A DNA stretch of 64,000 nt from the NCBI GenBank assembly GCA_963744145.1, contig CAVUSO010000001.1, forward strand, positions 1,568,001 through 1,632,000. Reading direction: 5' to 3'. The notes under the pieces were generated by a model, which worked only from the letters and a program-made list of their open reading frames with translations, made no database searches and had not been told where the DNA came from. Shown piece by piece: positions 14,122-28,555 of the stretch. This DNA is from an uncultured cyanobacterium. GTDB lineage: Bacteria; Cyanobacteriota; Cyanobacteriia; Cyanobacteriales; CAWUOF01. Position numbers and translations under genes: made by a program. Within the stretch, counting starts at the first letter, position 1. The number at the start of each line of letters is the position of its first letter.

Positions 14122-14904
14122 ATGTACGATAACATTTGTAAATTTATCGCCGAAAACTTTAGTGATGATCTGGCGAGTTGGTTATTGGGAACTCCCGTAA
14201 AGTTAACCAAACTAAACCCAAGGGAGTTATCTTTAGAACCGATCCGGATGGACTCTCTGATTTTACAACAGTCAGAAGAGTTAGTTTTGCACACAGAATT
14301 TCAAACCGAGCCCGATCCAGCAATTCCCTTTCGGATGCTAGACTATCGTGTCCGAGGATATCGTTGCTTTCCTGACAAGGAAATGCGTCAGATCGTGGTG
14401 TACTTGCGACCCACCAATTCGGAATTAGTGAGACAAACCAGTTTTAGATTAAGTCGGACTCATCACGAGTTTGATGTAATTCGGCTCTGGGAACAACCAA
14501 CGGAGATATTTCTATCTGCACCAGGGTTATTACCATTTGCAGTGTTGAGTCGGACACCAGAACCAGAGTTAGTATTAAATCAGGTAGCGAGGAGCATTGA
14601 CCAAATTACCGATCGCAATGTTCAAAGTAATATCTGTGCATCCACAGCGATTTTAGCTGGATTAAGATTAAATGGAGAAGTAATTACTAGACTATTAAGG
14701 AGAGAGATTATGCGCGAATCAGTCATCTATCAAGAGATTTTGCAGGAAGGGTTACAGGGAGGAGTAGAGCAAGGGATAGAAATCGGCAAACAACAAGCAA
14801 AAGAGGGGATAGCTGTCAATTTGCTCAAAACTGGGATGACGGTGGAGCAAGTGGTTACTTTTACTGGGTTATCGGTAGAACAAGTACAGCATTTACAGCA
14901 GTAG
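14122..14904 (+). CDS. Rpn family PD-(D/E)XK nuclease/putative transposase, copy A
   Basis: YDNICKF, IRMDSLI, LHTEFQT, PFRMLDY, MRESVIYQEI, C-terminal HTH-like tail. Confidence 0.85.
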   Translation: MYDNICKFIAENFSDDLASWLLGTPVKLTKLNPRELSLEPIRMDSLILQQSEELVLHTEFQTEPDPAIPFRMLDYRVRGYRCFPDKEMRQIVVYLRPTNSELVRQTSFRLSRTHHEFDVIRLWEQPTEIFLSAPGLLPFAVLSRTPEPELVLNQVARSIDQITDRNVQSNICASTAILAGLRLNGEVITRLLRREIMRESVIYQEILQEGLQGGVEQGIEIGKQQAKEGIAVNLLKTGMTVEQVVTFTGLSVEQVQHLQQ

Positions 14905-15023
14905 CTGAGTCAGTAAAAGTGATCGCATGAGTGAGACTTAAGCATGACTGTAAAAATTATCCGGGCTGCGATCGGTATTGTAGATGAATCCAGTTAATTT
15001 ACTGAGCGATCGCATCTGAAAAT

Positions 15024-15089
15024 TTAGCCCGGATATCCTTCTTGGAGATATTTTTCATGAGGGAATTAAGCTGAAAATAAGTCGGTTTT
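15024..15089 (-). pseudogene. 3' remnant (~20 codons) of the HTH-NB-ARC gene (copy A)
   Basis: Matches 16778-16844 including the stop codon, then homology stops abruptly. Confidence 0.8.
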
Positions 15090-15189
15090 CCATCATGTCT
15101 AAATAGGTGGGATTTTCTTCAATAAAGTAAATTAGCGGTGCTGTATCTAATGCTACAAGTTGTCCTTCTAACTGACTTATCCATTCCAT
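15055..15189 (-). pseudogene. truncated PIN/VapC toxin
   Basis: Translates MEWISQLEGQLVALDTAPLIYFIEENPTYLDMM (PIN N-terminal D-T motif), then runs into the NB-ARC remnant and stops after 44 aa. It overlaps the upstream antitoxin stop. Confidence 0.75.
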
Positions 15190-15392
15190 GAAGCTCGTTC
15201 CTGATTAACATATTCTTGTGCATCAATCCCATTCCAAACTTCCTTACCCAATCCCCGCAATTCTGTAATACTATGTTGTGGCTTAGGCATAACCCTGTGA
15301 CGCACATCTGCTAACAGTTCAGCGATCAGTCGCAGTTGTTCATCCGGTGGGAGGCTGAGAGCTTGATTTAGGATCTCGTTATAATTAGACAT
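15177..15392 (-). CDS. putative antitoxin of a VapBC-type pair
   Basis: 71 aa, LPPDEQLRLIAEL...SITELRGLGKEVWNGIDAQEYVNQERASW. Translationally coupled to the PIN fragment. Confidence 0.7.
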   Translation of the reverse strand: MSNYNEILNQALSLPPDEQLRLIAELLADVRHRVMPKPQHSITELRGLGKEVWNGIDAQEYVNQERASWNG

Positions 15393-15465: not shown

Positions 15466-15668
15466 GCGATCGCGTCGGTTGGAGAAGAAGGGGAGAAGGA
15501 TGGAATTGGTGGACAAAAGAATGGAGCAAAGACGATGACTTGATCTTCTCAGTCAATTCCCCTAAAGGTCATCTTCCAGGAGGAGCAGGTAGAAATCTAG
15601 TGGGATGGGATCATCGGAACGCCATTTTGGCTCGGATCAAGGTTTTTGCTAGTTATTTTTTCCCATAA
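15466..15668 (+). pseudogene. 3' remnant of the GUN4-domain gene starting at a HIP1 site
   Basis: Near-identical to 21551-21753; homology starts at GCGATCGC 15466-15473. Confidence 0.8.
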
Positions 15669-15782
15669 CAATAATTTCTTTGAATAAGTGGAGAGCTTTT
15701 TTTGCATGAGGTGCTAAAATGATCATATTGGCTTTTCTCATGATCTTTTTAGGGATGGCGATCGCGTTGCTCTTAACAAAAA

Positions 15783-16658
15783 ATGTACGATAACATTTGT
15801 AAATTTATCGCCGAAAACTTTAGTGATGATCTGGCGAGTTGGTTATTGGGAATTCCCGTAAAGTTAACCAAACTAAATCCAATGGAGTTATCTTTAGAAC
15901 CGATCCGGATGGACTCTCTGATTTTACAACAGTCAGAAGAGTTAGTTTTGCACACAGAATTTCAAACCGAGCCAGATCCAGCAATTCCCTTTCGGATGCT
16001 AGATTATCGTGTCCGAGGATATCGTTGCTTTCCTAACAAGGAAATGCGTCAGATCGTGGTGTACTTGCGACCCACCAATTCGGAATTAGTGAGACAAACC
16101 AGTTTTAGATTAAGTCGGACTCATCACGAGTTTGATGTAATTCGGCTCTGGGAACAACCAACAGAGATATTCCTATCTGCACCAGGGTTATTACCGTTTG
16201 CAGTGTTGAGTCGGACACCAGAACCAGAGTTAGTATTAAATCAGGTAGCGAGGAGCATTGACCAAATTACCGATCGCAATGTTCAAAGTAATATCTGTGC
16301 ATCCACAGCGATTTTAGCTGGATTAAGATTAAATGGAGAAGTAATTACCAGACTACTAAGGAGAGAGATTATGCGCGAATCAGTCATCTATCAAGAGATT
16401 TTGCATGAAGGGTTACAGGGAGGAGTAGAGCAAGGGATAGAAATCGGTAAACAACAAGGGATAGAAATCGGCAAACAACAAGGGATAGAAATCGGCAAAC
16501 AACAAGGGATAGAAATCGGCAAACAACAAGGGTTACAACAGTTACAGGAAGCAAAAGAGGGAATAGCTATCAATTTGCTCAAAACTGGGATGACGGTGGA
16601 GCAAGTGGTTACTTTTACTGGGTTATCTGTAGAACAAGTACAGCATTTACAGCAGTAG
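15783..16658 (+). CDS. Rpn family nuclease/putative transposase, copy B
   Basis: Nearly identical to copy A, with four GIEIGKQQ repeats. Confidence 0.85.
   Translation: MYDNICKFIAENFSDDLASWLLGIPVKLTKLNPMELSLEPIRMDSLILQQSEELVLHTEFQTEPDPAIPFRMLDYRVRGYRCFPNKEMRQIVVYLRPTNSELVRQTSFRLSRTHHEFDVIRLWEQPTEIFLSAPGLLPFAVLSRTPEPELVLNQVARSIDQITDRNVQSNICASTAILAGLRLNGEVITRLLRREIMRESVIYQEILHEGLQGGVEQGIEIGKQQGIEIGKQQGIEIGKQQGIEIGKQQGLQQLQEAKEGIAINLLKTGMTVEQVVTFTGLSVEQVQHLQQ
16431..16526 (+). repeat. 24-bp in-frame tandem repeat x4
   Basis: CAAGGGATAGAAATCGGYAAACAA; 1 copy in Rpn A, 4 in B, 3 in C. Confidence 0.9.
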
Positions 16659-16777
16659 CTGAGTCAGTAAAAGCGATCGCATAAGTGAGACCTAAGCATG
16701 ACTGTAAAAATTATCCGGGCTGCGATCGATATTGTAGATGAATCCAGTTAATTTATTGAGCGATCGCACCTGAAAAT

Positions 16778-18148
16778 TTAGCCCGGATACCCTTCTTGTA
16801 GATATTTTTTCATGAGGGGATTAAGCTGAAAATAAGTCGGTTTTACTTCAGATTTAGGATCGAGTAATAGCCGTCTTCCCAAAGATTGGATCGCATTTAA
16901 TAAGTCTGAAGTAGCTAACTTGTTTCTGCTGATAATTTGTGGTAATGTTATCGGTGTACTCTCCTGAGCTATATCGATTATAATTTCTTTTTCTGATGGT
17001 GATAATCTGTCAAATTGTCGTTTTAGTTGAACTTGTAAAGATTCACATAAAATTAAACTTTCACATTGGAGAAATTCAGAAACTTTACCTGCAAATAACT
17101 CTTGAATCATTAGAGCAGTAAACTCTAACCAGAGCGGATTTCCTTGGTAGATATTAATTAAAGTTTCCCAGGTTTCTTCATCTAATAAATTATGTTCCCT
17201 CAATATTTCTTTAGCTGCTATACCTAAATTACTTAATACTAAAGAGCGATCGGGACTATTTGATCGCTCTGATTTGGCAAAGTCTCTGATTTTTTCGGAA
17301 CTAATTAACATTAAGCAACTGTGATGAGAAGTTTTTGCTAATCGTCTAAAAAATAGAGGATAATTTTCTAAGGTTGGTTGATATTCTCCAGCAAATTTAC
17401 CGCTCCTAAAAAGCATCTGTACATCATCAAGAATAATCAAGCATCGATAGTTTCGCAGGTAATTGAGGAGTTGGGAAAGTTGCTTTTCAATATTGTGATT
17501 AATTTCTGGAGTTTCACAGAAGTTTTGGAGCAAGTTACTGAGGGTTGTTTCTAGGGTTGGAGAAAAACAAAGACTATAATAAATAATATAATCAAAATTA
17601 GTTTTTATTTGTTCAATTAAACGGAGACTCAGCGCGGTTTTACCAATTCCGCTCATTCCCAAAAGCTCGATCAGACGACAGCGATCGCTGATGATCCAAT
17701 GTTCTAGAGTAGCGAGTTCCGTGGTGCGATCGTAAAAGCTGAATATTTCTGGTGCATCACCTAAATTAATTTGGGGTTGTTTAGGGGTTTGTTGGGGATG
17801 TTGAGGAGATTTTGGCGATCGGGTCTTTTCTGAACAAATGTTAACATTATTAATTCCTCCAAAATTTTCACCAATAGATGAAATATGGTAAGTATTACCA
17901 TTTTCTACTATTGATCTAAAACTTGCTTTACTAACATCTTTTCCTAATCCATCCGATAGGATTTTCCACAATTGCGAACCGATATCCCTGACATAACTTT
18001 CGCTAGAATGGGTCATTTCAGCAATCTTTAGATAAGTCTCATCATGTAGAGTTCCTTGCAAAATAGCCTCTTGCAAATAGTCTAAGTGCTTACCTGTCTT
18101 AGTATAAACTAGCTCATCTGCCAATTTTAAGATTTCCTTAACATCCAT
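16778..18148 (-). CDS. HTH-NB-ARC (STAND) ATPase without a WD40/TPR sensor, copy B
   Basis: Walker A GMSGIGKT, Walker B LIILDD, FYDRTTEL, GNPLWL; N-terminal vWA-MoxR-associated-type HTH (TY.KIAE...YVR...LWK.LS); C-terminal winged helix. Confidence 0.85.
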   Translation of the reverse strand: MDVKEILKLADELVYTKTGKHLDYLQEAILQGTLHDETYLKIAEMTHSSESYVRDIGSQLWKILSDGLGKDVSKASFRSIVENGNTYHISSIGENFGGINNVNICSEKTRSPKSPQHPQQTPKQPQINLGDAPEIFSFYDRTTELATLEHWIISDRCRLIELLGMSGIGKTALSLRLIEQIKTNFDYIIYYSLCFSPTLETTLSNLLQNFCETPEINHNIEKQLSQLLNYLRNYRCLIILDDVQMLFRSGKFAGEYQPTLENYPLFFRRLAKTSHHSCLMLISSEKIRDFAKSERSNSPDRSLVLSNLGIAAKEILREHNLLDEETWETLINIYQGNPLWLEFTALMIQELFAGKVSEFLQCESLILCESLQVQLKRQFDRLSPSEKEIIIDIAQESTPITLPQIISRNKLATSDLLNAIQSLGRRLLLDPKSEVKPTYFQLNPLMKKYLQEGYPG

Positions 18149-18190
18149 AGGTCAACGATGGGATAAGCTTTCTGGCGTATTATATACGAT

Positions 18191-18262
18191 TTTTCCAACA
18201 TTTCCGACACTATTCTGACATTTCCAACTTGGTCACCCCAAAAAATACCCGATTTTTCCAAC
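18191..18262. promoter_or_regulatory. phased direct repeats (candidate operator) in the divergent promoter
   Basis: CCAAC/CCGAC/CTGAC/CCAAC at 18195, 18204, 18215, 18224 and CCAAC at 18258. Minus-strand TATAAT at 18179-18184. Confidence 0.55.
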
Positions 18263-18335
18263 TTGATCTCTAAAATTACCAATACTAAACTTGAGTAGTT
18301 GATAAATGCTAAGTAAATCAAAATAAGAATGTGAT

Positions 18336-18560
18336 ATGGGATACAAGTCAGATCACGATTTTAGAACAGGTTTGTTCAAGCAAGTGACAAAAGGTATGGA
18401 AGATGACCAACCTCAAGAATTCCATCAATTTTTGCATGATTACTATTCAGAGCAGAAAGATAGTATGACTTACCAAGAACTTCTGAAAGCTGCAAAAGAG
18501 TTTATGGAAAATTATCCAGAATATACATGGAATGGTGATAGATGGGTTTTTCAAGAATAA
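18336..18560 (+). CDS. small helical protein, toxin-tip-like (74 aa)
   Basis: Clean ORF. Shares LHD..Y.E(L/I)L..AK and NG..DRW with 24727-24954. Confidence 0.6.
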   Translation: MGYKSDHDFRTGLFKQVTKGMEDDQPQEFHQFLHDYYSEQKDSMTYQELLKAAKEFMENYPEYTWNGDRWVFQE

Positions 18561-18661
18561 GCATCTTGTTTGAATAAAATAGGTTGGCTTAACAAATTAG
18601 AGCAGCATATAATAGTCCACTAATTTTTTTGATAGTAACAATAGGAGATTAGAAGTAAACA

Positions 18662-18904
18662 ATGGCTAAACAAGCGGAAGCACTAATATCGAAATTTGGT
18701 GGCGATTACACTTATGAGGAGTTGCGCCTGATCAAAAAAGATTTTGAACTTTCTAAAATTCAATATGAATATCCAGGTAGTGTAAAAGGTAATAATTTTA
18801 CAGAACTAGAGGAACTGGCTAAAGATGGTGATCCAGATGCAAAAAAAGCAATTAAGCTTCTTCTCCAAACCAATAGACTAAATGAAAAATCAGGTCAAGA
18901 TTGA
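18662..18904 (+). CDS. small protein, toxin-tip-like (80 aa)
   Basis: AGGAG RBS; YPG....FTELEELAKDGDPDAKKAIKLL, reminiscent of polymorphic-toxin C-termini. Confidence 0.6.
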   Translation: MAKQAEALISKFGGDYTYEELRLIKKDFELSKIQYEYPGSVKGNNFTELEELAKDGDPDAKKAIKLLLQTNRLNEKSGQD

Positions 18905-19017
18905 ATAGCCCGAGTAGATTATAGATAGTTTAGATGTTGTCTAAAATTTATTCTTGCTATTTAGAGTTTAGTTCATACTGAGTGGAGTTTCATTCTACAA
19001 GAATCAAGAGACTAATT

Positions 19018-19200
19018 ATGGCTAAAAAACACATGGGTCAAGTTAAAACGCCAACAGGTTCTGCTTACGATTATTATTGGGATGAAAATACTGGTGAAGT
19101 CTATGTTGGTAGCGAATCGGCTGGTAAAGCTTCATCCTCTGATGAAGCTTGGCGTAAAGCTAACTACTACGCAACTACGCTTAAACAATGGAAGGATTGA
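19018..19200 (+). CDS. conserved 60-aa module protein, copy B
   Basis: Highly similar to 25057-25239 (KTPTGS.Y.YYWDE.TGEVYVG.ESAGKASS); homology starts at the ATG at 19018. Confidence 0.75.
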   Translation: MAKKHMGQVKTPTGSAYDYYWDENTGEVYVGSESAGKASSSDEAWRKANYYATTLKQWKD

Positions 19201-19213
19201 TTAAGAAAATTGT

Positions 19214-19431
19214 GATCGCTTCCTTCATAAGCTCTACTGTCTGGTGATATAAAAAATCAAGAAACGTTGAGTTTTTGTTGGGCGATCGCACTTGCTTTCC
19301 CAAAATCTCTACTAAATCTGACTGACAACGAACAATAATTCAAATCAAAATTGTGAATTGATCGCTCCATCAAATCTGATATCTAGTGATTGAAAAAATC
19401 AAAAGAGGTTGAGTTTTTGCTGGGCGATCGC
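19214..19431. repeat. two ~72-bp HIP1-bounded imperfect hairpin repeats
   Basis: 19214-19289 (diverged) and 19360-19431: GATCGC...AAAAATCAA.A.A.GTTGAGTTTTTG.TGGGCGATCGC. Confidence 0.75.
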
Positions 19432-19481
19432 TTCACTAAATCAACAAGTTCTAACAAATTTTAATCCAAACGGAGTTAATT

Positions 19482-20306
19482 ATGAGTAGTATACTCGAAA
19501 ATATAAAAGAATGTTTAGATGACTCTAACAAATACAGAGAACGGGGAGACTTCTATTCTGAGCAAAAAAAATATAAGCAAGCTCTTGAAGAATATGCTAG
19601 GTCTCTGGAAAGATTTGAAATATATCTGCGGCTTACCGAAACAACTGCGGGAAAAACATATTATGAAGGAAACATTTGGCCTAATGTACTTTTTTCGATG
19701 GCTAGGATATTTATGAAGATTAAAACTTGCTATTTTGAGCAGGAAGATTATGCTAAAGCTGCATTTTTTATCAAAATCTTAAAAGAAATTGCCAAAAATT
19801 TAGATGGATTTAAAACTAGTTTTAATATAGAAATGTTAAACTCTTACGAAACATTAATTGAAGGATTAAAATATAGTGAAGCTTTAGTTAGTGTAAAAAA
19901 AGATATAAGTGATTTAAAGAATCAATCTAACAAAGTAGATGATTCTGATGAAATTTTTAAGAAAATTTGTTTAGAATTAGATAGATGTTGTTCTTATCAT
20001 ATATGTCCTTTACCTGCTAGAGGAATTGATAAGAAAGCTCCTTATGGTAGTAGTAGTAATTCTTGCTTCATCGCAACAGCAGCCTTCTCAACTTCTGTAC
20101 ATCCAGACTTAGACACATTCCGTAGTTTTCGAGATGAAAAACTTTTAACCAATTTGATTGGTAAGCAGCTAGTTAATCTCTACTATAAAATCGGACCCAC
20201 TATAGCTCAATATGTGGAAAAACAGCCAGGAATCAAAACTTTTCTAAAACAGCAACTAGGGCATTTAGCAAAGTGGATGCGTAGCCGAGGAGTTACAAGT
20301 AGGTAA
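19482..20306 (+). CDS. TPR-like helical protein with C-terminal CFI-box-CTERM domain, copy B
   Basis: SCFIATAAFS...LDTFRSFRDEKL...YYKIGP C-terminus, GGAG RBS. Confidence 0.8.
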   Translation: MSSILENIKECLDDSNKYRERGDFYSEQKKYKQALEEYARSLERFEIYLRLTETTAGKTYYEGNIWPNVLFSMARIFMKIKTCYFEQEDYAKAAFFIKILKEIAKNLDGFKTSFNIEMLNSYETLIEGLKYSEALVSVKKDISDLKNQSNKVDDSDEIFKKICLELDRCCSYHICPLPARGIDKKAPYGSSSNSCFIATAAFSTSVHPDLDTFRSFRDEKLLTNLIGKQLVNLYYKIGPTIAQYVEKQPGIKTFLKQQLGHLAKWMRSRGVTSR

Positions 20307-20376
20307 TATAAATTTTTGCGATCGCCTATTTTTCAGACATGGTAATCAAAATAATTTAACTGAGGATGTAGCTAAT

Positions 20377-20560
20377 ATGGAAATTTTGGAAAATCGCCAA
20401 GAAATATGGTATGAAAAAGGTAAGGAGTTACGTTAGCAAGGTGAGTTTATAGGTGCGATCGCTGCATTCGATCAAGCTATAGCGATTAAAAACGACTTCC
20501 ATCAAGCTTGGTTTTTCAAGGGTATTGTGCTGAATTATTTAGAACGCTATGAGGATGCAA
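20377..20560 (+). pseudogene. truncated TPR gene (copy B)
   Basis: Matches the start of 26467-27840, with GAG->TAG at 20434-20436; homology ends at 20560. Confidence 0.85.
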
Positions 20561-20674: not shown

Positions 20675-21753
20675 ATGCATTCTGTAAAAGGTGTAGATTA
20701 CACAAACTTACAACACTTGTTATCTGAAGGAAGATGGAAAGAAGCTGATTTAGAAACAGGTAAAAAAATGTGTGAAGTGATGGGGCGAGAAAAAGAAGGT
20801 AGTTTAACAGTCCAGGATATTAATAATTTTCCCAGTGAAGACTTACGCATAATTGATCAGCTTTGGGTAAAAGCTAGTAACGGTCATTTTGGTTTTTCAG
20901 TGCAGAAACGTATTTATGAAAGTCTGGGTGGAACCAAACGCTATTTAGGCGGAAATCAATATTATGATGAGAAAATCTGGAAAGCTTATGTTGCTCGCGT
21001 TGGCTGGTATTTAAGTGGACTTAATGGATGGATAGACTACAATGACCATACATTTCCAAGTAATGATTCATTCGACGGCCACCTACCAAGGGGAGGGTTT
21101 ACATTTACTTCCCAAGGGGGATACGCAGTCATTTCTTTAGGAGATTCTGGTTGGCACCAACTTCTTTTGCGAATGGACACAATTGATGGTAAGCAAACCA
21201 ATAAGCCTTTAGAAATAAAAGTTCTCGATTCAGTAAAAGGTGTAGATTACACAAATTTACAACGTTTATTGGCTGAAGTAAAATGGAAAGAAGCTGATAT
21301 AGAAACGCGCAAAAAAATGTTGGAAGTAATGGGGCGGCACAAAGTTTATAACGGTACTCTAAGACTCGAAGATATTAACAATTTTCCCTGCGAAATTTAC
21401 GCACAATTGATAAACTTTGGGTGAAATACAGTAACGGTCATTTTGGTTTTTCGGTGCAAAAGCATATCTATGAAGCTCTGGGTGGAACCTGGTCTTATAA
21501 TGAGAACACAGAACATCCAATATATAATGAGACTATCTGGACTACTTTTGGCGATCGCGTCGGTTGGAGAAGAAGGGGAGAAGGATGGAATTGGTGGACA
21601 AAAGAATGGATAAAAGACGATGACTTTATCTTCTCAGTCAATTCCCCTAAAGGTCATCTTCCAGGAGGAGCAGGTAGAAATATAGTGGGGTGGGATCATA
21701 GGATAGCCATTTTTGCTCGGATCAAGGTTTTTGCTAGTTATTTTTTCCCATAA
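20675..21753 (+). pseudogene. tandem two-GUN4-domain gene with 1-bp frameshift
   Basis: Two GVDYTNLQ..L...WKEAD.ET...FP..DL..ID.LWVK.SNGHFGFSVQK domains. Adding one G near 21395 restores FPCEDLRTIDKLWVK and joins the two ORFs. Confidence 0.8.
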
Positions 21754-21866
21754 CAATAATTTCTTTTAATAAGTGGAGAGCTTTTTTGCATGAGGTGCTA
21801 AAATGATCATATTGGCTTTTCTCATGATCTTTTTCAGAATGGCGATCGCGTTGCTCTTAACAAAAA

Positions 21867-22718
21867 ATGTACGATAACATTTGTAAATTTATCGCCGAAA
21901 ACTTTAGTGATGATCTGGCGAGTTGGTTATTGGGAACTCCCGTAAAGTTAACCAAACTAAACCCAAGGGAGTTATCTTTAGAACCGATCCGGATGGACTC
22001 TCTGATTTTACAACAGTCAGAAGAGTTAGTTTTGCACACAGAATTTCAAACCGAGCCAGATCCAACAATTCCCTTTCGGATGCTAGATTATCGTGTCCGA
22101 GGATATCGTTGCTTTCCTGACAAGGAAATGCGTCAGATCGTGGTGTACTTGCGACCCACCAATTCGGAATTAGTGAGACAAACCAGTTTTAGATTAAGTC
22201 GGACTCATCACGAGTTTGATGTAATTCGGCTCTGGGAACAACCAACAGAGATATTTCTATCTGCACCAGGGTTATTACCGTTTGCAGTGTTGAGTCGGAC
22301 ACCAGAACCAGAGTTAGTATTAAATCAGGTAGCGAGGAGCATTGACCAAATTACCGATCGCAATGTTCAAAGTAATATCTGTGCATCCACAGCGATTTTA
22401 GCTGGATTAAGATTAAATGGAGAAGTAATTACTAGACTATTAAGGAGAGAGATTATGCGTGAATCAGTCATCTATCAAGAGATTTTGCATGAAGGGTTAC
22501 AGGGAGGAGTAGAGCAAGGGATAGAAATCGGCAAACAACAAGGGATAGAAATCGGCAAACAACAAGGGATAGAAATCGGCAAACAACAAGGGTTACAACA
22601 GTTACAGGAAGCAAAAGAGGGAATAGCTATCAATTTGCTCAAAACTGGGATGACGGTGGAGCAAGTGGTTACTTTTACTGGGTTATCTGTAGAACAAGTA
22701 CAGCATTTACAGCAGTAG
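21867..22718 (+). CDS. Rpn family nuclease/putative transposase, copy C
   Basis: Nearly identical to copies A and B, with three GIEIGKQQ repeats. Confidence 0.85.
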   Translation: MYDNICKFIAENFSDDLASWLLGTPVKLTKLNPRELSLEPIRMDSLILQQSEELVLHTEFQTEPDPTIPFRMLDYRVRGYRCFPDKEMRQIVVYLRPTNSELVRQTSFRLSRTHHEFDVIRLWEQPTEIFLSAPGLLPFAVLSRTPEPELVLNQVARSIDQITDRNVQSNICASTAILAGLRLNGEVITRLLRREIMRESVIYQEILHEGLQGGVEQGIEIGKQQGIEIGKQQGIEIGKQQGLQQLQEAKEGIAINLLKTGMTVEQVVTFTGLSVEQVQHLQQ

Positions 22719-22838
22719 CTGAGTCAGTAAAAGCGATCGCATGAGTGAGACCTAAGCATGACTGTTAAAAATTATCCGGGCTGCGATCGATATTGTAGAT
22801 GAATCCAGTTAATTTATTAAGCGATCGCATCTAAAAAC

Positions 22839-24209
22839 TTAGCCCGGATATCCTTCTTGTAGATATTTTTTCATAAGATAATTAAGCTGAAAATAAGTCT
22901 GTTTTCCTTCAGATTTAGAATCTAGTAATAGCCGTCTTCCCAAAGATTGGATCGCATTTAATAAGTCTGAAGTAGCTAACTTGTTGCTGTTGATAATTTG
23001 TGATAATGTTATCGGTGCATCCTCCTGAGCCAGATCAATTATAATTTCTTTTTCTGAGGGTGCTAGTCGCTCATATTGTCCTTTTAGTTGCACTTGCAAA
23101 GATTCGCATAAAATCAAACTTTCACATTGGAGAAATTCAGAAACTTTACCTGCAAATAACTCTTGAATCATTAGAGCAGTAAACTCTAACCAGAGCGGAT
23201 TTCCTTGGTAAGTATTAATTAAAGTTTCCCAGGTTTCTTCATCTAATAAATTATGTTCTCTCAATATTTCTTTAGCTGCTATACCTAAATTACTTAATAC
23301 TAAAGAGCGATCGGGACTATTTGATCGCTCTGATTTGGCAAAGTCTCTGATTTTTTCGGAACTAATTAACATTAAGCAACTGTGATGAGAAGTTTTTGCT
23401 AATCGTCTAAAAAATAGAGGATAATTTTCTAAGGTTGGTTGATATTCTCCAGCAAATTTACCGCTCCTAAAAAGCATCTGTACATCATCAAGAATAATCA
23501 AGCATCGATAGTTTCGCAGGTAATTAAGGAGTTGGGAAAGTTGCTTTTCAATATTGTGATTAATTTCTGGAGTTTCACAGAAGTTTTGGAGCAAGTTACT
23601 GAGGGTTGTTTCTAGGGTTGGAGAAAAACAAAGACTGTAGTAAATAACATAATCAAAGTTAGTTTTTATTTGTTCAATTAAACGGAGAGTTAGTGCAGTT
23701 TTACCAATTCCGCTCATTCCCAAAAGCTCGATCAGACGACAGCGATCGCTGATAATCCAATGTTCTAGAGTAGCGAGTTCCGTGGTGCGATCGTAAAAGC
23801 TGAATATTTCTGGTGCATCACCTAAGTTAATTTGGGGTTGTTTAGGGGTTTGTTGGGGAGGTTGAGGAGATTTTGGCGATCGGGATTTTTCTTGACAAAA
23901 ATTGACGTTATTAACTGTTCCATAATTTTGACCAATAGCTGATGAATAACTAAACCTTGCTCTTTCTAGGATCGCTCTAACATTACCTTTACTAACCTCT
24001 TCGTCTAATACCTCTGAAAGTATTTTCCATAATTCAGAAGCAGCAACTCTAACATAACCCTCAGTACAATCACGGTCTTGGGCTATCTTGGCATATTTCC
24101 GACCTTGGAGAGCTTCTTTTAAAATAGCCTCTTGCAGATCATCTAAGTGTTGTCCAGTTTTGGCAAAAACTCTTTCATCGGCGAATCTTAAAACTTCCTT
24201 AAGCTCCAT
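22839..24209 (-). CDS. HTH-NB-ARC (STAND) ATPase, copy C
   Basis: Same length (456 aa) and near-identical ATPase core to copy B; N-terminal ~105 aa strongly diverged. Confidence 0.85.
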   Translation of the reverse strand: MELKEVLRFADERVFAKTGQHLDDLQEAILKEALQGRKYAKIAQDRDCTEGYVRVAASELWKILSEVLDEEVSKGNVRAILERARFSYSSAIGQNYGTVNNVNFCQEKSRSPKSPQPPQQTPKQPQINLGDAPEIFSFYDRTTELATLEHWIISDRCRLIELLGMSGIGKTALTLRLIEQIKTNFDYVIYYSLCFSPTLETTLSNLLQNFCETPEINHNIEKQLSQLLNYLRNYRCLIILDDVQMLFRSGKFAGEYQPTLENYPLFFRRLAKTSHHSCLMLISSEKIRDFAKSERSNSPDRSLVLSNLGIAAKEILREHNLLDEETWETLINTYQGNPLWLEFTALMIQELFAGKVSEFLQCESLILCESLQVQLKGQYERLAPSEKEIIIDLAQEDAPITLSQIINSNKLATSDLLNAIQSLGRRLLLDSKSEGKQTYFQLNYLMKKYLQEGYPG

Positions 24210-24250
24210 AAGTCATGCTTTGGATAATTTTTACTAATATTACCAAAGTT

Positions 24251-24300
24251 TTTATAACATTTTACATAACATTATGTAACTTTTTCTAACAGGCTCAAAC
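24251..24300. promoter_or_regulatory. phased direct repeats (candidate operator) in the divergent promoter
   Basis: ATAAC/ATAAC/GTAAC/CTAAC/CAAAC at 24254, 24266, 24276, 24286, 24296. Plus-strand TATGAT at 24326-24331. Confidence 0.55.
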
Positions 24301-24357
24301 AACTAATCGTCCAAAGCAGCCATTGTATGATATTTGAGTAACTTCGGAGAAGCAAAA

Positions 24358-24624
24358 ATGCCTAGCCCAAGTGGTTGGAAATCTATCGGTAAAATTGATG
24401 GAGTTGATTGGGAAATCAAAGAAAAAAAGCACGGTCGATTTTTTCTTATGCGGTCTGTTGGAACTCAATATGACCCTAACGATCCTGATTATCCTCACAC
24501 TCTAGTTGAACTTGAAAATGGCCAATTAACTGGCTTTCAGCACAATTCAGATGATAGACACGGGATGAAGTTCGGAACACGGGATGTAATTATGGCGGCA
24601 GCAAGGATTGTTTTGAGCATTTAG
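24358..24624 (+). CDS. small hypothetical protein (88 aa)
   Basis: ATG at 24358 after GGAG; contains YPHT and FQHN motifs; no counterpart in copy B. Confidence 0.6.
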   Translation: MPSPSGWKSIGKIDGVDWEIKEKKHGRFFLMRSVGTQYDPNDPDYPHTLVELENGQLTGFQHNSDDRHGMKFGTRDVIMAAARIVLSI

Positions 24625-24726
24625 AGTCGTTGCATGATACTTGATTAAGATTTGCTGTTCGACTTTGCAGTGTTATAGCCGCTCTTGTTGTATATAATCT
24701 ACTTAGGTAAATGAGGCAAATATTCA

Positions 24727-24954
24727 ATGTCTAATAAACCATTTAAGGACGAAAGAAAACAAAATCGTGAATCAGCACAAAAGGATGTTGATAATGTCGT
24801 GAAAGAATTACATTTAACACCAGATGAAAGAGATAAATTACATGATGAATTAGGTGAAGATTATCTCGGATACCATGAAATTCTTGATAGAGCTAAATCT
24901 CTGTTTTCTAAACGTCATGTTAATTATAAAAATGGAGAAAAAGATCGCTGGTAG
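24727..24954 (+). CDS. small helical protein, toxin-tip-like (75 aa)
   Basis: GAGG RBS; KELHLTPDERDKLHDEL...GYHEILDRAK. Confidence 0.6.
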   Translation: MSNKPFKDERKQNRESAQKDVDNVVKELHLTPDERDKLHDELGEDYLGYHEILDRAKSLFSKRHVNYKNGEKDRW

Positions 24955-25056
24955 TCAATGGTTATGCTGTAAAAATAAAGGGTTTATCAAACCGGCTAGT
25001 TAGAGTTTAGGTAATACAGAATTCAGTTGAATTTTATAAACATCAATGGAGTAGTT

Positions 25057-25239
25057 ATGGCTAGAAAAGCAATGGGTGAAGTTAAAACGCCAACAGGTTC
25101 AGTTTATACTTATTATTGGGACGAAGATACTGGTGAAGTCTATGTTGGTGGTGAATCGGCTGGTAAAGCCTCATCTGCTGATGAAGCTTTGCATAAAGCT
25201 AACTACTACGCAACTACGCTTAAACAATGGAAGGATTGA
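25057..25239 (+). CDS. conserved 60-aa module protein, copy C
   Basis: Paralog of 19018-19200, GGAG RBS. Confidence 0.75.
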   Translation: MARKAMGEVKTPTGSVYTYYWDEDTGEVYVGGESAGKASSADEALHKANYYATTLKQWKD

Positions 25240-25256
25240 TTAAGAAAATTGTGATT

Positions 25257-25470
25257 GATCGCTCTATCAAATCTGATATCTAGTGATTGAAAAAATCAAA
25301 AGAGGTTGAATTTTTGCTGGGCGATCGCACTTGCTTTCCCAAAATCCCTACTAAATCTGACTGACAACGAACAATAATTCAAATCAAAATTGTGAATTGA
25401 TCGCTCCATAAAATCTGATATCTAGTGATTGAAAAAATCAAAAGAGGTTGAGTTTTTGCTGGGCGATCGC
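25257..25470. repeat. two 72-bp HIP1-bounded imperfect hairpin repeats
   Basis: 25257-25328 and 25399-25470, nearly identical to 19360-19431. Confidence 0.8.
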
Positions 25471-25520
25471 TTTACTAAATCAACAAGTTCTAAGAAATTT
25501 TAATCCAAACGGAGTTAATT

Positions 25521-26396
25521 ATGGATGTTGCTACAGAAATACAACAATTATTGAACGCAAGTATCGGATGCAGAAACAGTGGAGACGTTTATTATGAGCA
25601 AAAAAAATATAAGCAATCTCTTGAAGAATATGCTAGAGCTCTGGAAAAATTTCAAGAATATCTAAACCTTTTTGGTGCTTTTGAAGAATCTGAGCGTCGA
25701 ATGTGTGGACATAGGACTGATTTCGATGTAGAAACCATAGGTAATGTAAAAATTAAAATTAATGTTCTTTTTCCAATGGCTGTTATATTTATTTCGATTG
25801 AAAATTGCTATATTCAACTGCGAGATTATGCTAAAGGTACGTTTTGTCTTAAAATTTTAAGACAAATTATCCAGGGGTTGGATAGAGTTAAAAATAGCCT
25901 ACATCCAGAGATATTAAAAGCCTACATAGAATATACTGAAATGTTAGATTCTTATGACCGATGTTTAAATTCAATGAAAATACTAACACTAACAGACAAA
26001 AGTGATTCTGATAATCAATCTAACGAAATTGACGATTCTGATGAGACTTTTAAAAAAATTTGTTTAGAATTAGACAAATGCTGTTCGTATCGTATATGTC
26101 CTTTGCCTGCTAGAGGAATTGATAAGAAAGCTCCTTATGATGGTAGTAATTCTTGCTTCATTGCAACAGCAGCTTACTCAACTTCTACACATCCAGACTT
26201 AGACACTTTCCGCAGTTTCCGAGATGAAAAACTTTTAACTAATTCTGTTGGTAAGCAGGTAGTTAATATCTACTATAAAATCGGTCCTACAATCGCTCAA
26301 TATGTGGACAAACAGCCAGAAATTAAAACTTTTCTAAAACAGCAACTAGGGTATTTAGCAAAGTGGATGCGTAGTCGAGGAGTTACAAGTAGGTAA
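25521..26396 (+). CDS. TPR-like helical protein with CFI-box-CTERM domain, copy C
   Basis: SCFIATAAYS C-terminal domain near-identical to copy B; N-terminal half divergent. Confidence 0.8.
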   Translation: MDVATEIQQLLNASIGCRNSGDVYYEQKKYKQSLEEYARALEKFQEYLNLFGAFEESERRMCGHRTDFDVETIGNVKIKINVLFPMAVIFISIENCYIQLRDYAKGTFCLKILRQIIQGLDRVKNSLHPEILKAYIEYTEMLDSYDRCLNSMKILTLTDKSDSDNQSNEIDDSDETFKKICLELDKCCSYRICPLPARGIDKKAPYDGSNSCFIATAAYSTSTHPDLDTFRSFRDEKLLTNSVGKQVVNIYYKIGPTIAQYVDKQPEIKTFLKQQLGYLAKWMRSRGVTSR

Positions 26397-26466
26397 TATA
26401 AATTTTGGCGATCGCCTATTTTTCAGACATGATAATCAAAATAATTTAACTTAGGATGGAGCCAAT

Positions 26467-27840
26467 ATGGAAAATTTGGAAAATAGCGAAGAAGTATGGT
26501 ATGAAAAAGGTAAGGAGTTACGTGAGCAAGGTGAGTTTATAGGTGCGATCGCTGCATTCGATCAAGCTATAGCGATTAAAAACGACTTCCATCAGGCTTG
26601 GTTTTTCAAGGGTGTTGTGCTGTATGATTTAGAACGCTATGAGGATGCAATTGCCGTATTCGATCAAGCTATAGCAATTAAAAACGACTTCGATAAGGCT
26701 TGGTTTTTCAAGGGTGTTGTGCTGAATGCTTTAGAACGCTATGAGGATGCAATTGCCGTATTCGATCACCTTATAGCAATTGAATATAACTTCTGCGATC
26801 TAGCTTGGAATAATAAGGGGCTTGCACTATGTGAATTAAAACGCTATATGGACGCAATCATAGCATTTGACCAAGCTATAGCAATTAAAAATAACTATCA
26901 TGAAGCTTGGGATTCCAAGGGTTATGCACTGTCTAAGTTAGAACGTTATGAAGATGCGATCGCTGCATTTAATCAAGCTATAGCGATTAAACACGATTTC
27001 TTCGTAGCTTGGTGGCACAAGGGTGTTGTACTGTATGATTTAGAACGCTATGAGGATGCGATCGCTGCATTCGATCAAGCTATAGCGATTGATAATGATC
27101 AATCTGCTTGGTCTCTCAAAGGTCATGCACTGACGAGTTTAGGAAATGAGCTGTGGAAATTAGAACGACATAAGGACGCGATAATTGCATTGGATCAAGC
27201 TATAGCCATTAACCATGATAACGGACTAGCTTGGTGCTACAAGGGCTGTGTTTTGAATAACTTAAAACGGTATGAAGATGCGATCATTGCATTTGACCAA
27301 GCTATAGCGATTGACCATAATTGCCACGGTGCTTGGTTATTCAAGGGCGCTACACTGAATAACTTAGAACGCTATGAGGATGCGATCACCGCATTTGATC
27401 AAGCTATAGCGATTAAACCTGACTTACATCAAGCTTGGTTTGACAAGGGTTTTACACTAAATGAATTAGAACGGTATAACGATGCGATCATAGCATTAGA
27501 CCAAGGTATAGCAATTAAATACGACGACGAAAACGCTTGGTTTAATAAAGGTTTTGCGCTGTATAACTTAAACCAGCATGAAGATGCGATCGTTGCACTA
27601 GACCAAGCTATAAAGATTAATCACAATAATGAAAGCGCTTGTTTTTATAAGGGTCGTGCACTGAGTGATTTAGGACGCGATGAGGATGCGATTATGGCAT
27701 TTGACCAGGCTATATCAATTAAGCACGACTGCCAACAAGCTTGGTTTCAGAAGAGTAAATCGTTGCGTAAATTAAAACGCGATGAGGATGCCAATGCAGC
27801 CCTTAGCAAGTTCTTTAATTTTGTTGTGGAGAAATCATAA
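26467..27840 (+). CDS. tetratricopeptide repeat protein
   Basis: About a dozen 34-aa AWxxKGxxLxxLERYEDAIxAFDQAIAI repeats. Confidence 0.92.
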   Translation: MENLENSEEVWYEKGKELREQGEFIGAIAAFDQAIAIKNDFHQAWFFKGVVLYDLERYEDAIAVFDQAIAIKNDFDKAWFFKGVVLNALERYEDAIAVFDHLIAIEYNFCDLAWNNKGLALCELKRYMDAIIAFDQAIAIKNNYHEAWDSKGYALSKLERYEDAIAAFNQAIAIKHDFFVAWWHKGVVLYDLERYEDAIAAFDQAIAIDNDQSAWSLKGHALTSLGNELWKLERHKDAIIALDQAIAINHDNGLAWCYKGCVLNNLKRYEDAIIAFDQAIAIDHNCHGAWLFKGATLNNLERYEDAITAFDQAIAIKPDLHQAWFDKGFTLNELERYNDAIIALDQGIAIKYDDENAWFNKGFALYNLNQHEDAIVALDQAIKINHNNESACFYKGRALSDLGRDEDAIMAFDQAISIKHDCQQAWFQKSKSLRKLKRDEDANAALSKFFNFVVEKS

Positions 27841-28413: not shown

Positions 28414-28555
28414 GACCTAACTATGCGATCGATCCACTAACTTATGATAGAAAAAATAAAGAAAGGTTGGGGTTTTGCTGGGCGATCTTCTTTAAGCTGC
28501 TGGGTAATTTACTTGGTTAAGCTAATGGAGAAGAAGGATAGTAGCTTTAGGAAAG

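Follow-up and report, generated by a model that had tools for sequence, protein, structure and literature searches.

Paralogous cyanobacterial STAND ATPases probably read phased direct repeats upstream of their own genes through an N-terminal helix-turn-helix domain

Introduction

The 64,000-nt stretch of DNA analysed here (the window; uncultured cyanobacterium, GCA_963744145.1, contig CAVUSO010000001.1, positions 1,568,001 to 1,632,000) carries two paralogous minus-strand genes encoding 456-aa STAND proteins, copy B (16778..18148) and copy C (22839..24209). Each gene is preceded by a run of short direct repeats at roughly helical phase, and the locus raises the question of whether the N-terminal domain of each protein, a predicted helix-turn-helix (HTH), reads the repeats in front of its own gene. 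STAND and NLR-like ATPases have mostly been studied as death or immunity switches. An initial annotation of the window had proposed that an oligomerising STAND protein binds an array of direct repeats, and that each paralog has an orthogonal pair of HTH and operator controlling its own cargo and promoter. Judged from sequence comparison, each HTH probably binds the array in front of its own gene in a sequence-specific manner, and the repeats prove to be part of a promoter architecture found at homologous loci of other genomes.

Results

Repeat arrays and -10 boxes of copies B and C

On the plus strand, the pentamers upstream of copy B are CCAAC (18195), CCGAC (18204), CTGAC (18215) and CCAAC (18224), with spacings of 9, 11 and 9, and those upstream of copy C are ATAAC (24254), ATAAC (24266), GTAAC (24276) and CTAAC (24286), with spacings of 12, 10 and 10. 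The first pentamer lies 47 nt from the start codon in copy B (start at 18148) and 45 nt in copy C (start at 24209). All coordinates given by the initial annotation were exact. A fifth copy B pentamer, CCAAC at 18258, was absent from it. While the positions stood, the strand and size of the unit had to be revised: on the gene (minus) strand, the pentamers are the variable cores of 9-12-bp direct repeats, each composed of a core and an A-tract, with units of about 10 bp.

The copy B array (18185..18228, minus strand) consists of four units with the cores GTTGG, GTCAG, GTCGG and GTTGG, each followed by an A-tract, plus a degenerate unit touching the -10 box. The distal fifth unit (18250..18262, minus strand) is a 13-nt exact copy of the proximal one and lies closer to the divergent gene. 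The copy C array (24248..24290, minus strand) has four units with the cores GTTAG, GTTAC, GTTAT and GTTAT. Both arrays run towards the -10-like hexamer of their gene, which is TATAAT in copy B (18179..18184, minus strand, 30 nt before the ATG) and TAATAT in copy C (24237..24242, minus strand, 27 nt before the ATG). A sigma-70 scan detected no -35 match at 16-18 nt from the copy B TATAAT and no -35/-10 pair.

The probability of chance occurrence was assessed by searching both strands of the whole 7.7-Mb genome with the degenerate patterns of the initial annotation. Chains of at least four C[CT][AG]AC at a spacing of 9-11 occurred three times genome-wide, namely at copy B, in an array near another paralog and at one coding site. 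Chains of at least four TAAC at a spacing of 10-12 were likewise found three times (copy C and two coding tandem repeats), and in a scan with six core patterns the copy C array was the sole chain of four for its core pattern in its own genome. The motif GTYGGAAA had 8 matches in the window versus 5.7 expected; four of them lie inside 18192-18262, all on the minus strand. The repeats are real and not a product of chance. Tandem Repeats Finder calls neither array.

The copy C array also contains an 8-2-8 inverted repeat (24262-24279). The palindrome was considered as a general feature of the family and rejected: four orthologs (L056, L139, L144 and L200) keep it with a compensating change, but it is not kept at L140, L141 and L145.

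Repeat and promoter architecture across the family

All nine paralogs of the same genome (9/9) have 2-5 tandem repeats before a TATAAT-like box located ~27-30 nt from the ATG, each with a core of its own. Two sets comprising 169 homologous loci from other genomes were compared with them. The first set held 98 loci from related genomes, 94 of which were usable after four had been left out (no start codon, truncated frame or short upstream region). The second set of 80 loci, 75 of them non-duplicate, came from a scan of named public genomes with the copy C domain as query. Repeats were measured by a fixed-period self-match score, with 3185 upstream regions of the window's own genome as control.

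A score of at least 8 was obtained for 45 of the 94 first-set loci versus 135 of the 3185 controls, and a score of at least 10 for 31/94 versus 39/3185. Most of the strong arrays had a 10-bp period (37/45). A perfect TATAAT between -50 and -18 was present at 31 of the 94 loci and in 155 of the 3185 controls, and the median start of the -10 box was -35 relative to the ATG. The second set gave a score of at least 8 in 48/75 loci and a perfect TATAAT in 49/75. Across both sets (108 of 169 loci usable), the promoter-proximal repeat copy started preferentially at -6, -16 and -26/-27 from the start of the -10 box, which places the array in register with the promoter.

The family also includes short members that lack the ATPase. 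Upstream of one of these, a 173-aa protein of the same genome (L007, ~529790-530045), a stretch of 260 nt holds four separate GACGG-type repeat modules, all of which end in a TATAAT-like box. Two such repeat clusters were observed at several other short relatives (L077, L096, L067 and L086).

Recognition-helix residues and repeat core

Comparison of the loci supports a change of the repeat core together with residues 51, 52 and 55, at the start of the predicted recognition helix. In the model of copy B, this helix comprises residues 50-68 (17945..18001, minus strand), with positions 51, 52 and 55 tracking the core; the same residues of copy C (24006..24062, minus strand) align without gaps. 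The letters of residues 47-58 of both proteins read as initially annotated.

Three attempts to register one core per locus, using exact 5-mers, a rigid pattern and a chain model, set many arrays in the wrong register, such as on GGAAA or GAAAA. Consensus cores were therefore discarded as unreliable and a register-free test was used instead, which ranks protein alignment columns by how well they predict that two loci share phased repeated 5-mers. In the first set (64 loci with phased 5-mers), the top columns were 55, 51, 54 and 52, all at the start of the predicted recognition helix, with z values of 7.5, 7.2, 7.1 and 5.7; the next best column reached 4.6. In the second set (69 loci), columns 52, 51 and 57 ranked 1, 2 and 3 of 82, and column 55 ranked 11th. 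Columns 51 and 52 were thereby replicated, and the comparison supports the proposed correlation between upstream repeats and helix residues.

Individual residue combinations were linked to individual cores. At least two copies of TCGGA were found at 13 of 21 first-set loci with G51/H52/D55 versus 0 of 73 others, and this group joins two sub-lineages that are only 40-46% identical. GTTAT was present at both G51/Y52/V55 loci (copy C and its ortholog; 2/2) versus 1/92, and GTTGG at two of the four S51/Y52/D55 loci, those of copy B and of its closest relative but neither of the others, versus 1/90. In one genome, two paralogs with 64% identity have helices that are the same apart from D55N, and their cores are GTCGG and GTCAT. 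Two C-type relatives with a different residue 55 have other cores.

The proposed orthogonality of the HTH/operator pairs stood in part. The cores of B and C are distinct, and the C-type pair is conserved, with GTTA cores at 10-bp spacing kept in at least eight further C-type orthologs from other genomes. However, orthogonality is incomplete within the genome itself, as the copy B array holds a GTCGG core that is also used by the paralog at 6931363.

N-terminal HTH domain

The N-terminal domain of copy B (residues 1-107; 17828..18148, minus strand) is of the sigma-region-4/LuxR type according to hhalign, an AlphaFold model and fold searches; that of copy C (23889..24209, minus strand) also has a weak, below-cut-off match to Sigma70_r4_2. 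A profile of 43 domain sequences was aligned by hhalign with a profile of the Sigma70_r4_2/LuxR segments of the same genome, and residues 21-57 matched model columns 10-47 with a probability of 92.5% (E 5e-7). In this alignment, domain helix residues 49-57 correspond to the sigma recognition helix. The AlphaFold model of the domain has pLDDT values >90 over residues 1-80 and helices at 3-18, 24-34, 39-46, 50-68 and 74-82. Its top Foldseek match was 2h27, sigma-E region 4 on -35 DNA (prob 0.89, E 0.59). An independent VIA search aligned 65 residues to the C-terminal domain of NarL on DNA (Z 8.0, rmsd 3.0); LuxR/NarL/FixJ-type HTH proteins occupied 10 of its 12 first rows, and sigma region 4 domains came lower in the list. 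Neither the single domain nor its profile matched any sequence of a solved structure. On the profile and the model, with fold scores that are middling, the N-terminal ~85 residues are a predicted sigma-region-4/LuxR-type tetrahelical HTH.

The label PF26355.1 is precomputed on copy B and on all 120 homologs among the matches listed. At E up to 1e-3, the domain is spread over 1124 cluster representatives at 50% identity, and it was present in 34 of 41 genomes searched (the window's own and 40 related ones), with up to 20 matches per genome. Tandem N-terminal domains without an ATPase also occur, with four copies in P0127 (541 aa) and three in P0263 (391 aa); by sequence, these would be covalent HTH arrays.

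STAND ATPase domain

In a full-length model of copy B (pLDDT 83.9), the HTH (1-84) is followed by a disordered linker (85-122), the NB-ARC ATPase, a helical domain and a C-terminal winged helix. The modelled ATPase part comprises an alpha/beta domain (126-305), helices (309-360), and three helices with a hairpin (369-451). NB-ARC Pfam scores were 39.9 bits for copy B and 40.6 bits for copy C against a cut-off of 23.5, and the two proteins align without gaps. Walker A (G164-T171) and Walker B (D241-D242) were identified in copy B, and G164, G169, K170 and D241 are invariant in 61 homologs. With the NB-ARC match, both Walker motifs and the series of nucleotide-binding, helical and winged-helix domains, B and C are STAND NTPases of the NB-ARC/AP-ATPase type.

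Copy B has no C-terminal sensor repeats (TPR, WD40 or LRR), since its chain stops at residue 456 just past the winged helix; longer relatives of ~1200 aa exist. A Pfam scan of B and C gave no match to Sigma70_r2 (region 2), and the model has no extra domain between HTH and ATPase, so the proteins are not sigma factors. Neither Trans_reg_C nor BTAD was matched in B or C at E up to 0.01. PADLOC gave a weak PDC-S27 match to the ATPase (E 2.6e-4), nothing for the neighbouring genes, and named no system.

Mosaic segmental duplication

Copies B and C belong to a ~6.06-kb tandem segmental duplication, in which 15570-20560 aligns with 21655-26650. Each unit holds, in this order, an Rpn-family nuclease gene (plus strand), the 456-aa NB-ARC gene (minus strand), a short intergenic region, and three small open reading frames (ORFs) with a CFI-box-CTERM protein gene (plus strand). 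The first unit (15570..20560) aligns throughout except for 18236-18955, which is unalignable with 24298-24994. The flanks of the duplication are 92-100% identical. Its centre, which comprises the N-terminal domain, the intergenic region and the first two small ORFs, has diverged or does not align.

From 16701 to ~17823, the DNA of B and C is 96-100% identical, and identity then falls sharply to ~65%. This low-identity zone starts at the GGCGATCGGG site (17814..17823), located at the breakpoint, and spans the N-terminal domain and the intergenic region. The sharp drop looks like a recombination or conversion boundary. At the protein level, 384 of 456 residues are identical; identity is 49% over residues 1-100 and 94.8% beyond residue 130. 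The pattern is reversed between copy C and an ortholog from another genus, where the N-terminal domain is 78% identical and the remainder only 56%.

The near-identity of the B and C ATPases reflects a recent duplication or gene conversion, which makes the HTH and operator cassette the older, separately inherited unit; in the window, this cassette also takes in the first two small ORFs. The observation that the recognition helix changes while the ATPase stays near-identical holds as a description and does not by itself serve as evidence of selection.

Other parts of the locus are also duplicated or degraded. A third STAND copy persists as a 145-bp remnant of the 3' end (14951-15095), which matches the ends of B and C at 94-95% identity and has neither an N-terminal part nor a promoter. 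Beside it lies a 71-aa ORF (15177-15392, minus strand), a close relative of which (L120:20-235, plus strand) stands beside the copy C ortholog in another genus. Three paralogs of the Rpn-family nuclease, or putative transposase, are located at 14122-14904, 15783-16658 and 21867-22718 (TIGR01784, E 1e-28) and vary in the number of copies of a 24-bp in-frame tandem repeat (3.2 copies at 22515-22592 according to Tandem Repeats Finder). Two neighbouring GUN4-domain ORFs (249 and 110 aa; 20675-21753) with internal repeats share a 4-nt overlap, and a frameshift may have divided a single gene into the two. In the counterpart place, the copy C unit has a 457-aa TPR gene (26467-27840); a 107-nt TPR remnant is left in the copy B unit at 20454-20560.

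Divergent neighbours and further arrays

The genes divergent from copy B (18336..20306, plus strand) encode three small proteins of 74, 80 and 72 aa and a 274-aa CFI-box-CTERM protein, and are its possible cargo. Those divergent from copy C (24358..26396, plus strand) comprise three small ORFs and a gene for a 291-aa CFI-box-CTERM protein. Among the small ORFs (within 18336-19200 and 24358-25239), the first and second are unrelated between the units and the third (72 and 70 aa) is conserved with ~83% DNA identity; none of the small ORFs had a family match above threshold. The CFI-box-CTERM paralogs (19482-20306 and 25521-26396; NF041770, E 6e-21 and 5e-22) have an N-terminal TPR-like stretch. 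Between the small ORFs and the CFI-box genes lies a 75-nt repeat family ending in GGCGATCGC, with five copies that are 65-99% identical (19215-19431, 25254-25470 and 28415-28489).

Control of its own cargo by each paralog, as initially proposed, is suggested by the orientation of neighbouring genes, although the neighbour has no conserved identity. The upstream neighbour was divergent in 32 of 37 loci; under even odds this would occur about 4 times in a million, a figure to be read with the caution that related loci are not independent and ORF calls are crude. The divergent neighbours were varied, including SLOG, double-GTPase, DUF4917, tubulin-like, radical SAM and RTX proteins, and 13 of 30 had no Pfam family. 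A conserved cargo family was rejected, given that the 30 scanned neighbours span many families and that the neighbours of the L120 and L121 orthologs differ from those in the window. This pattern fits a variable divergent cargo paired with the regulator, which the regulator would control.

Across five genomes, a tandem GTCGG pair was counted 17 times and the reversed control a single time; 12 of these 17 pairs stand upstream of a domain-bearing gene, at a distance of up to ~650 bp. In the genome-wide scan with six core patterns, a single further intergenic array had at least three units. It consists of four perfect GTCGGAAAT units (L099:5186-5222, own genome 6926186-6926222), 5 kb from the same-core paralog at 6931363, and lies just upstream of a TTGACA-N18-GATAAT promoter, ~300 nt before a Trypsin_2 + TPR gene (L099:5551-7050). 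Another second array, located further off, precedes a SocA/Panacea gene.

In two other genomes, GTCGGAAAAGTCGGA arrays stand beside genuine ECF sigma genes with Sigma70_r2 and r4_2 (L128:1501-1690, L137:1501-1540, L126 and L129). These sigma genes are oriented divergently from the arrays and encode a recognition helix that differs from that of the PF26355-labelled HTH domain of the B/C family. A domain-bearing gene lies ~400-600 nt downstream of the L128 arrays; at L137 there is none within 1.5 kb.

Discussion

Proposed mechanism

According to the model that we favour, each gene would encode a transcription regulator composed of an HTH, a ~38-residue flexible linker and an NB-ARC STAND ATPase without a sensor domain. 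The HTH would read 10-bp-phased direct repeats (a 5-bp variable core and an A-tract) on one face of the DNA, in the intergenic region common to the regulator's own promoter and the divergent neighbour. Recognition-helix positions 51, 52 and 55 would determine the core that is read, so that paralogs would recognise different arrays. From known STAND behaviour we infer that the array is bound by an oligomer, and from MalT and other STANDs that multimerisation of the ATPase provides cooperativity: head-to-tail multimers would align several HTHs with several repeats.

The repeats overlap the -35 region and the spacer of a strong promoter that has only a -10 box; their occupancy would repress the regulator's own gene at rest, and signal-driven assembly would then alter expression of the divergent neighbour. 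The sign of the regulation is itself conjectural, with autorepression given slightly more than an even chance against activation. What points towards autorepression is the location of the repeats between -35 and -10, a core that ends 1-2 bp from a near-consensus -10 box, and the monocistronic gene.

Several observations weigh against the proposed regulator or limit its reach. The repeat-score threshold is missed by about half of the first-set loci and a third of the second-set loci, the most distant family members mostly have no visible array, and the -10 assignment rests on consensus and fixed position. Columns 54 and 58 fail to replicate in the second set (ranks 34 and 65 of 82), in which many scaffold columns also score high, indicating that the test is inflated by shared descent. 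Domain identification has its own weak points: the Pfam cut-off of 25.7 for Sigma70_r4_2 is not reached, with 16.4 bits for copy C (E 0.0069) and no match for copy B at E up to 10; Foldseek yields no E-value of 1e-3 or lower for the domain; and a Z of 8 is middling for a small helical domain. Short family members without the ATPase carry the same arrays, from which it follows that the ATPase is not needed and that the HTH is the part to which the pairing is tied. None of 25 loci had a second phased pair within 1.5 kb, so no regulon is visible beyond the regulator's own intergenic region. Finally, an activator would explain the fixed register with the -10 box no less well than a repressor.

Alternative explanations

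The same binding with the opposite sign is the closest competitor, and we regard it as possible, though not the probable outcome. Here, a MalT- or AfsR-like activator would, upon a signal, form multimers on the repeats that replace the missing -35 element and recruit RNA polymerase, giving positive autoregulation and possibly activation of the divergent gene too. The promoters have a -10 box and no -35 match, the arrays hold a fixed 10-bp register with that box, as polymerase geometry would impose, and by hand count the GGAAA of one unit falls where sigma region 4 would sit. The second array of four GTCGG units just upstream of the promoter of the trypsin-TPR gene is also compatible with activation. 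Against this, the proximal core mostly ends 1-2 bp from the -10 box, in the region occupied by polymerase, and the -10 boxes are near consensus, as a rule of thumb an uncommon feature where a promoter depends on an activator. At the four loci inspected, the gene is monocistronic, so self-activation alone would give no output. Precedents point both ways: passages on known systems describe AfsR as activating even though its direct repeats span -19 to -40 (PMC10936776) and MalT as needing multimerisation for cooperative box binding (PMC4381067), but the SARP repeats are quoted at 8 bp from the -10 box, farther than here (PMC10936776). A related and doubtful variant treats the domain as a sigma region 4 supplied in trans, with a STAND multimer delivering region-4-like heads to -10-only promoters upon a signal. 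The heads would replace or cooperate with region 4 of the resident sigma factor, or pair with the catalogued cyanobacterial region-2-only 'sigma' proteins, and the result would be a split sigma gated by a signal, of which each genome would have dozens of orthogonal specificities.

The remaining alternatives dispense with DNA reading by the protein. The repeats could be promoter architecture (A-tract curvature, UP-like elements or sites of another sigma or other factor), with the helix match due to shared descent; an A-tract at helical phase in every unit, the strong scaffold-column signals of the second association test and the similar GTCGG arrays adjoining genuine ECF sigma genes in one genome would suit this explanation. 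We consider it improbable, since the core varies while the A-tract does not, helix positions 51 and 52 are among the top ranks in two separate sets, the G51/H52/D55 rule spans the two distant sub-lineages, a lone D55N accompanies a core change between two paralogs of one genome, and the array-adjoining ECF sigma has an unrelated recognition helix. It is very unlikely that the N-terminal domain is a protein-protein adaptor like the effector-associated domains (EADs) of conflict systems, pairing with an effector copy rather than with DNA. The domain does occupy the EAD position on STAND proteins, and a passage of Kaur et al. lists ECF-like HTHs alongside EADs at that position (PMC8195603); however, no adjacent gene carries a second copy, the nine genome copies are dispersed save for the B/C duplicates, the fold and profile matches are DNA-binding HTHs, and the link with the upstream DNA would be left unexplained. 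Least credible is that the arrays are functionless products of replication slippage copying a -10-like unit. The unit tail does resemble a -10 box, the last unit merges with it and the unit number varies from 2 to 5, yet cores are kept across genera while flanks diverge, control upstream regions rarely show such arrays, and cores within one array are often non-identical, unlike those of recent slippage.

Significance

If the proposed regulator is correct, a large cyanobacterial branch of STAND proteins would have an apparent transcriptional output, with targets readable from sequence. The helix-repeat rules predict that G51/H52/D55 goes with a CGG core, D55N with a change of the core from GG to AT, and G51/Y52/V55 with a GTTA core. 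Were these rules true, they would provide a natural set of orthogonal regulator-operator pairs, a route to finding the genes controlled by each switch, and a case of linker recombination moving a whole HTH-operator cassette between ATPase bodies. Should binding fail, the finding would shrink to an unusual conserved promoter architecture.

Comparison with known systems

The domain fusion itself has been recorded before. A cyanobacterial class of region-4-only 'sigma' proteins with the same fusion is catalogued as r4_2*NB-ARC*TPR_MalT, 'SigR', clan K, with NB-ARC and WD40 as frequent accessory domains (a passage of PMC11119718), and Kaur et al. (2021) noted ECF-like HTHs on related conflict-system proteins, pointing to a transcriptional response (a passage of PMC8195603). 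These passages give no target sites, autoregulatory layout or specificity residues. In the open-access literature searched, we found no description of operators, promoter layout or specificity residues, and no open-access paper with PF26355 was found.

MalT and the LAL proteins resemble the B/C family in joining a STAND ATPase to a tetrahelical LuxR/sigma-region-4-type HTH, and multimerisation of MalT permits cooperative binding to repeated boxes in target promoters (a passage of PMC4381067). In those proteins, however, the HTH is C-terminal and follows a MalT-type NOD and a SUPR sensor, whereas B and C have an N-terminal HTH, no sensor and an ATPase that scores as NB-ARC. Moreover, the own promoter is the only conserved target here, and a genome holds many paralogs that differ in specificity.

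AfsR and the large SARPs share with B and C an N-terminal DNA-binding domain on a NOD ATPase and helically phased direct repeats over the -35 region and spacer; the afs box, as given in a passage of PMC10936776, extends from -19 to -40 and has 11-bp direct repeats overlapping the -35 region and spacer. The SARPs differ in having an OmpR-type winged helix and BTAD, neither of which was detected in B or C, and the present repeats recur every 10 bp, form arrays of up to five, reach the -10 box and belong to a cyanobacterial and not an actinobacterial lineage. ECF sigma region 4 on the -35 element provides the best Foldseek (2h27) and profile match, with its recognition helix aligned to the core-tracking positions, but B and C have no region 2, and there are several tandem sites instead of one -35 element. 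On this comparison, we file the B/C family as STAND transcription regulators outside the MalT/LAL and SARP families and distinct from sigma factors.

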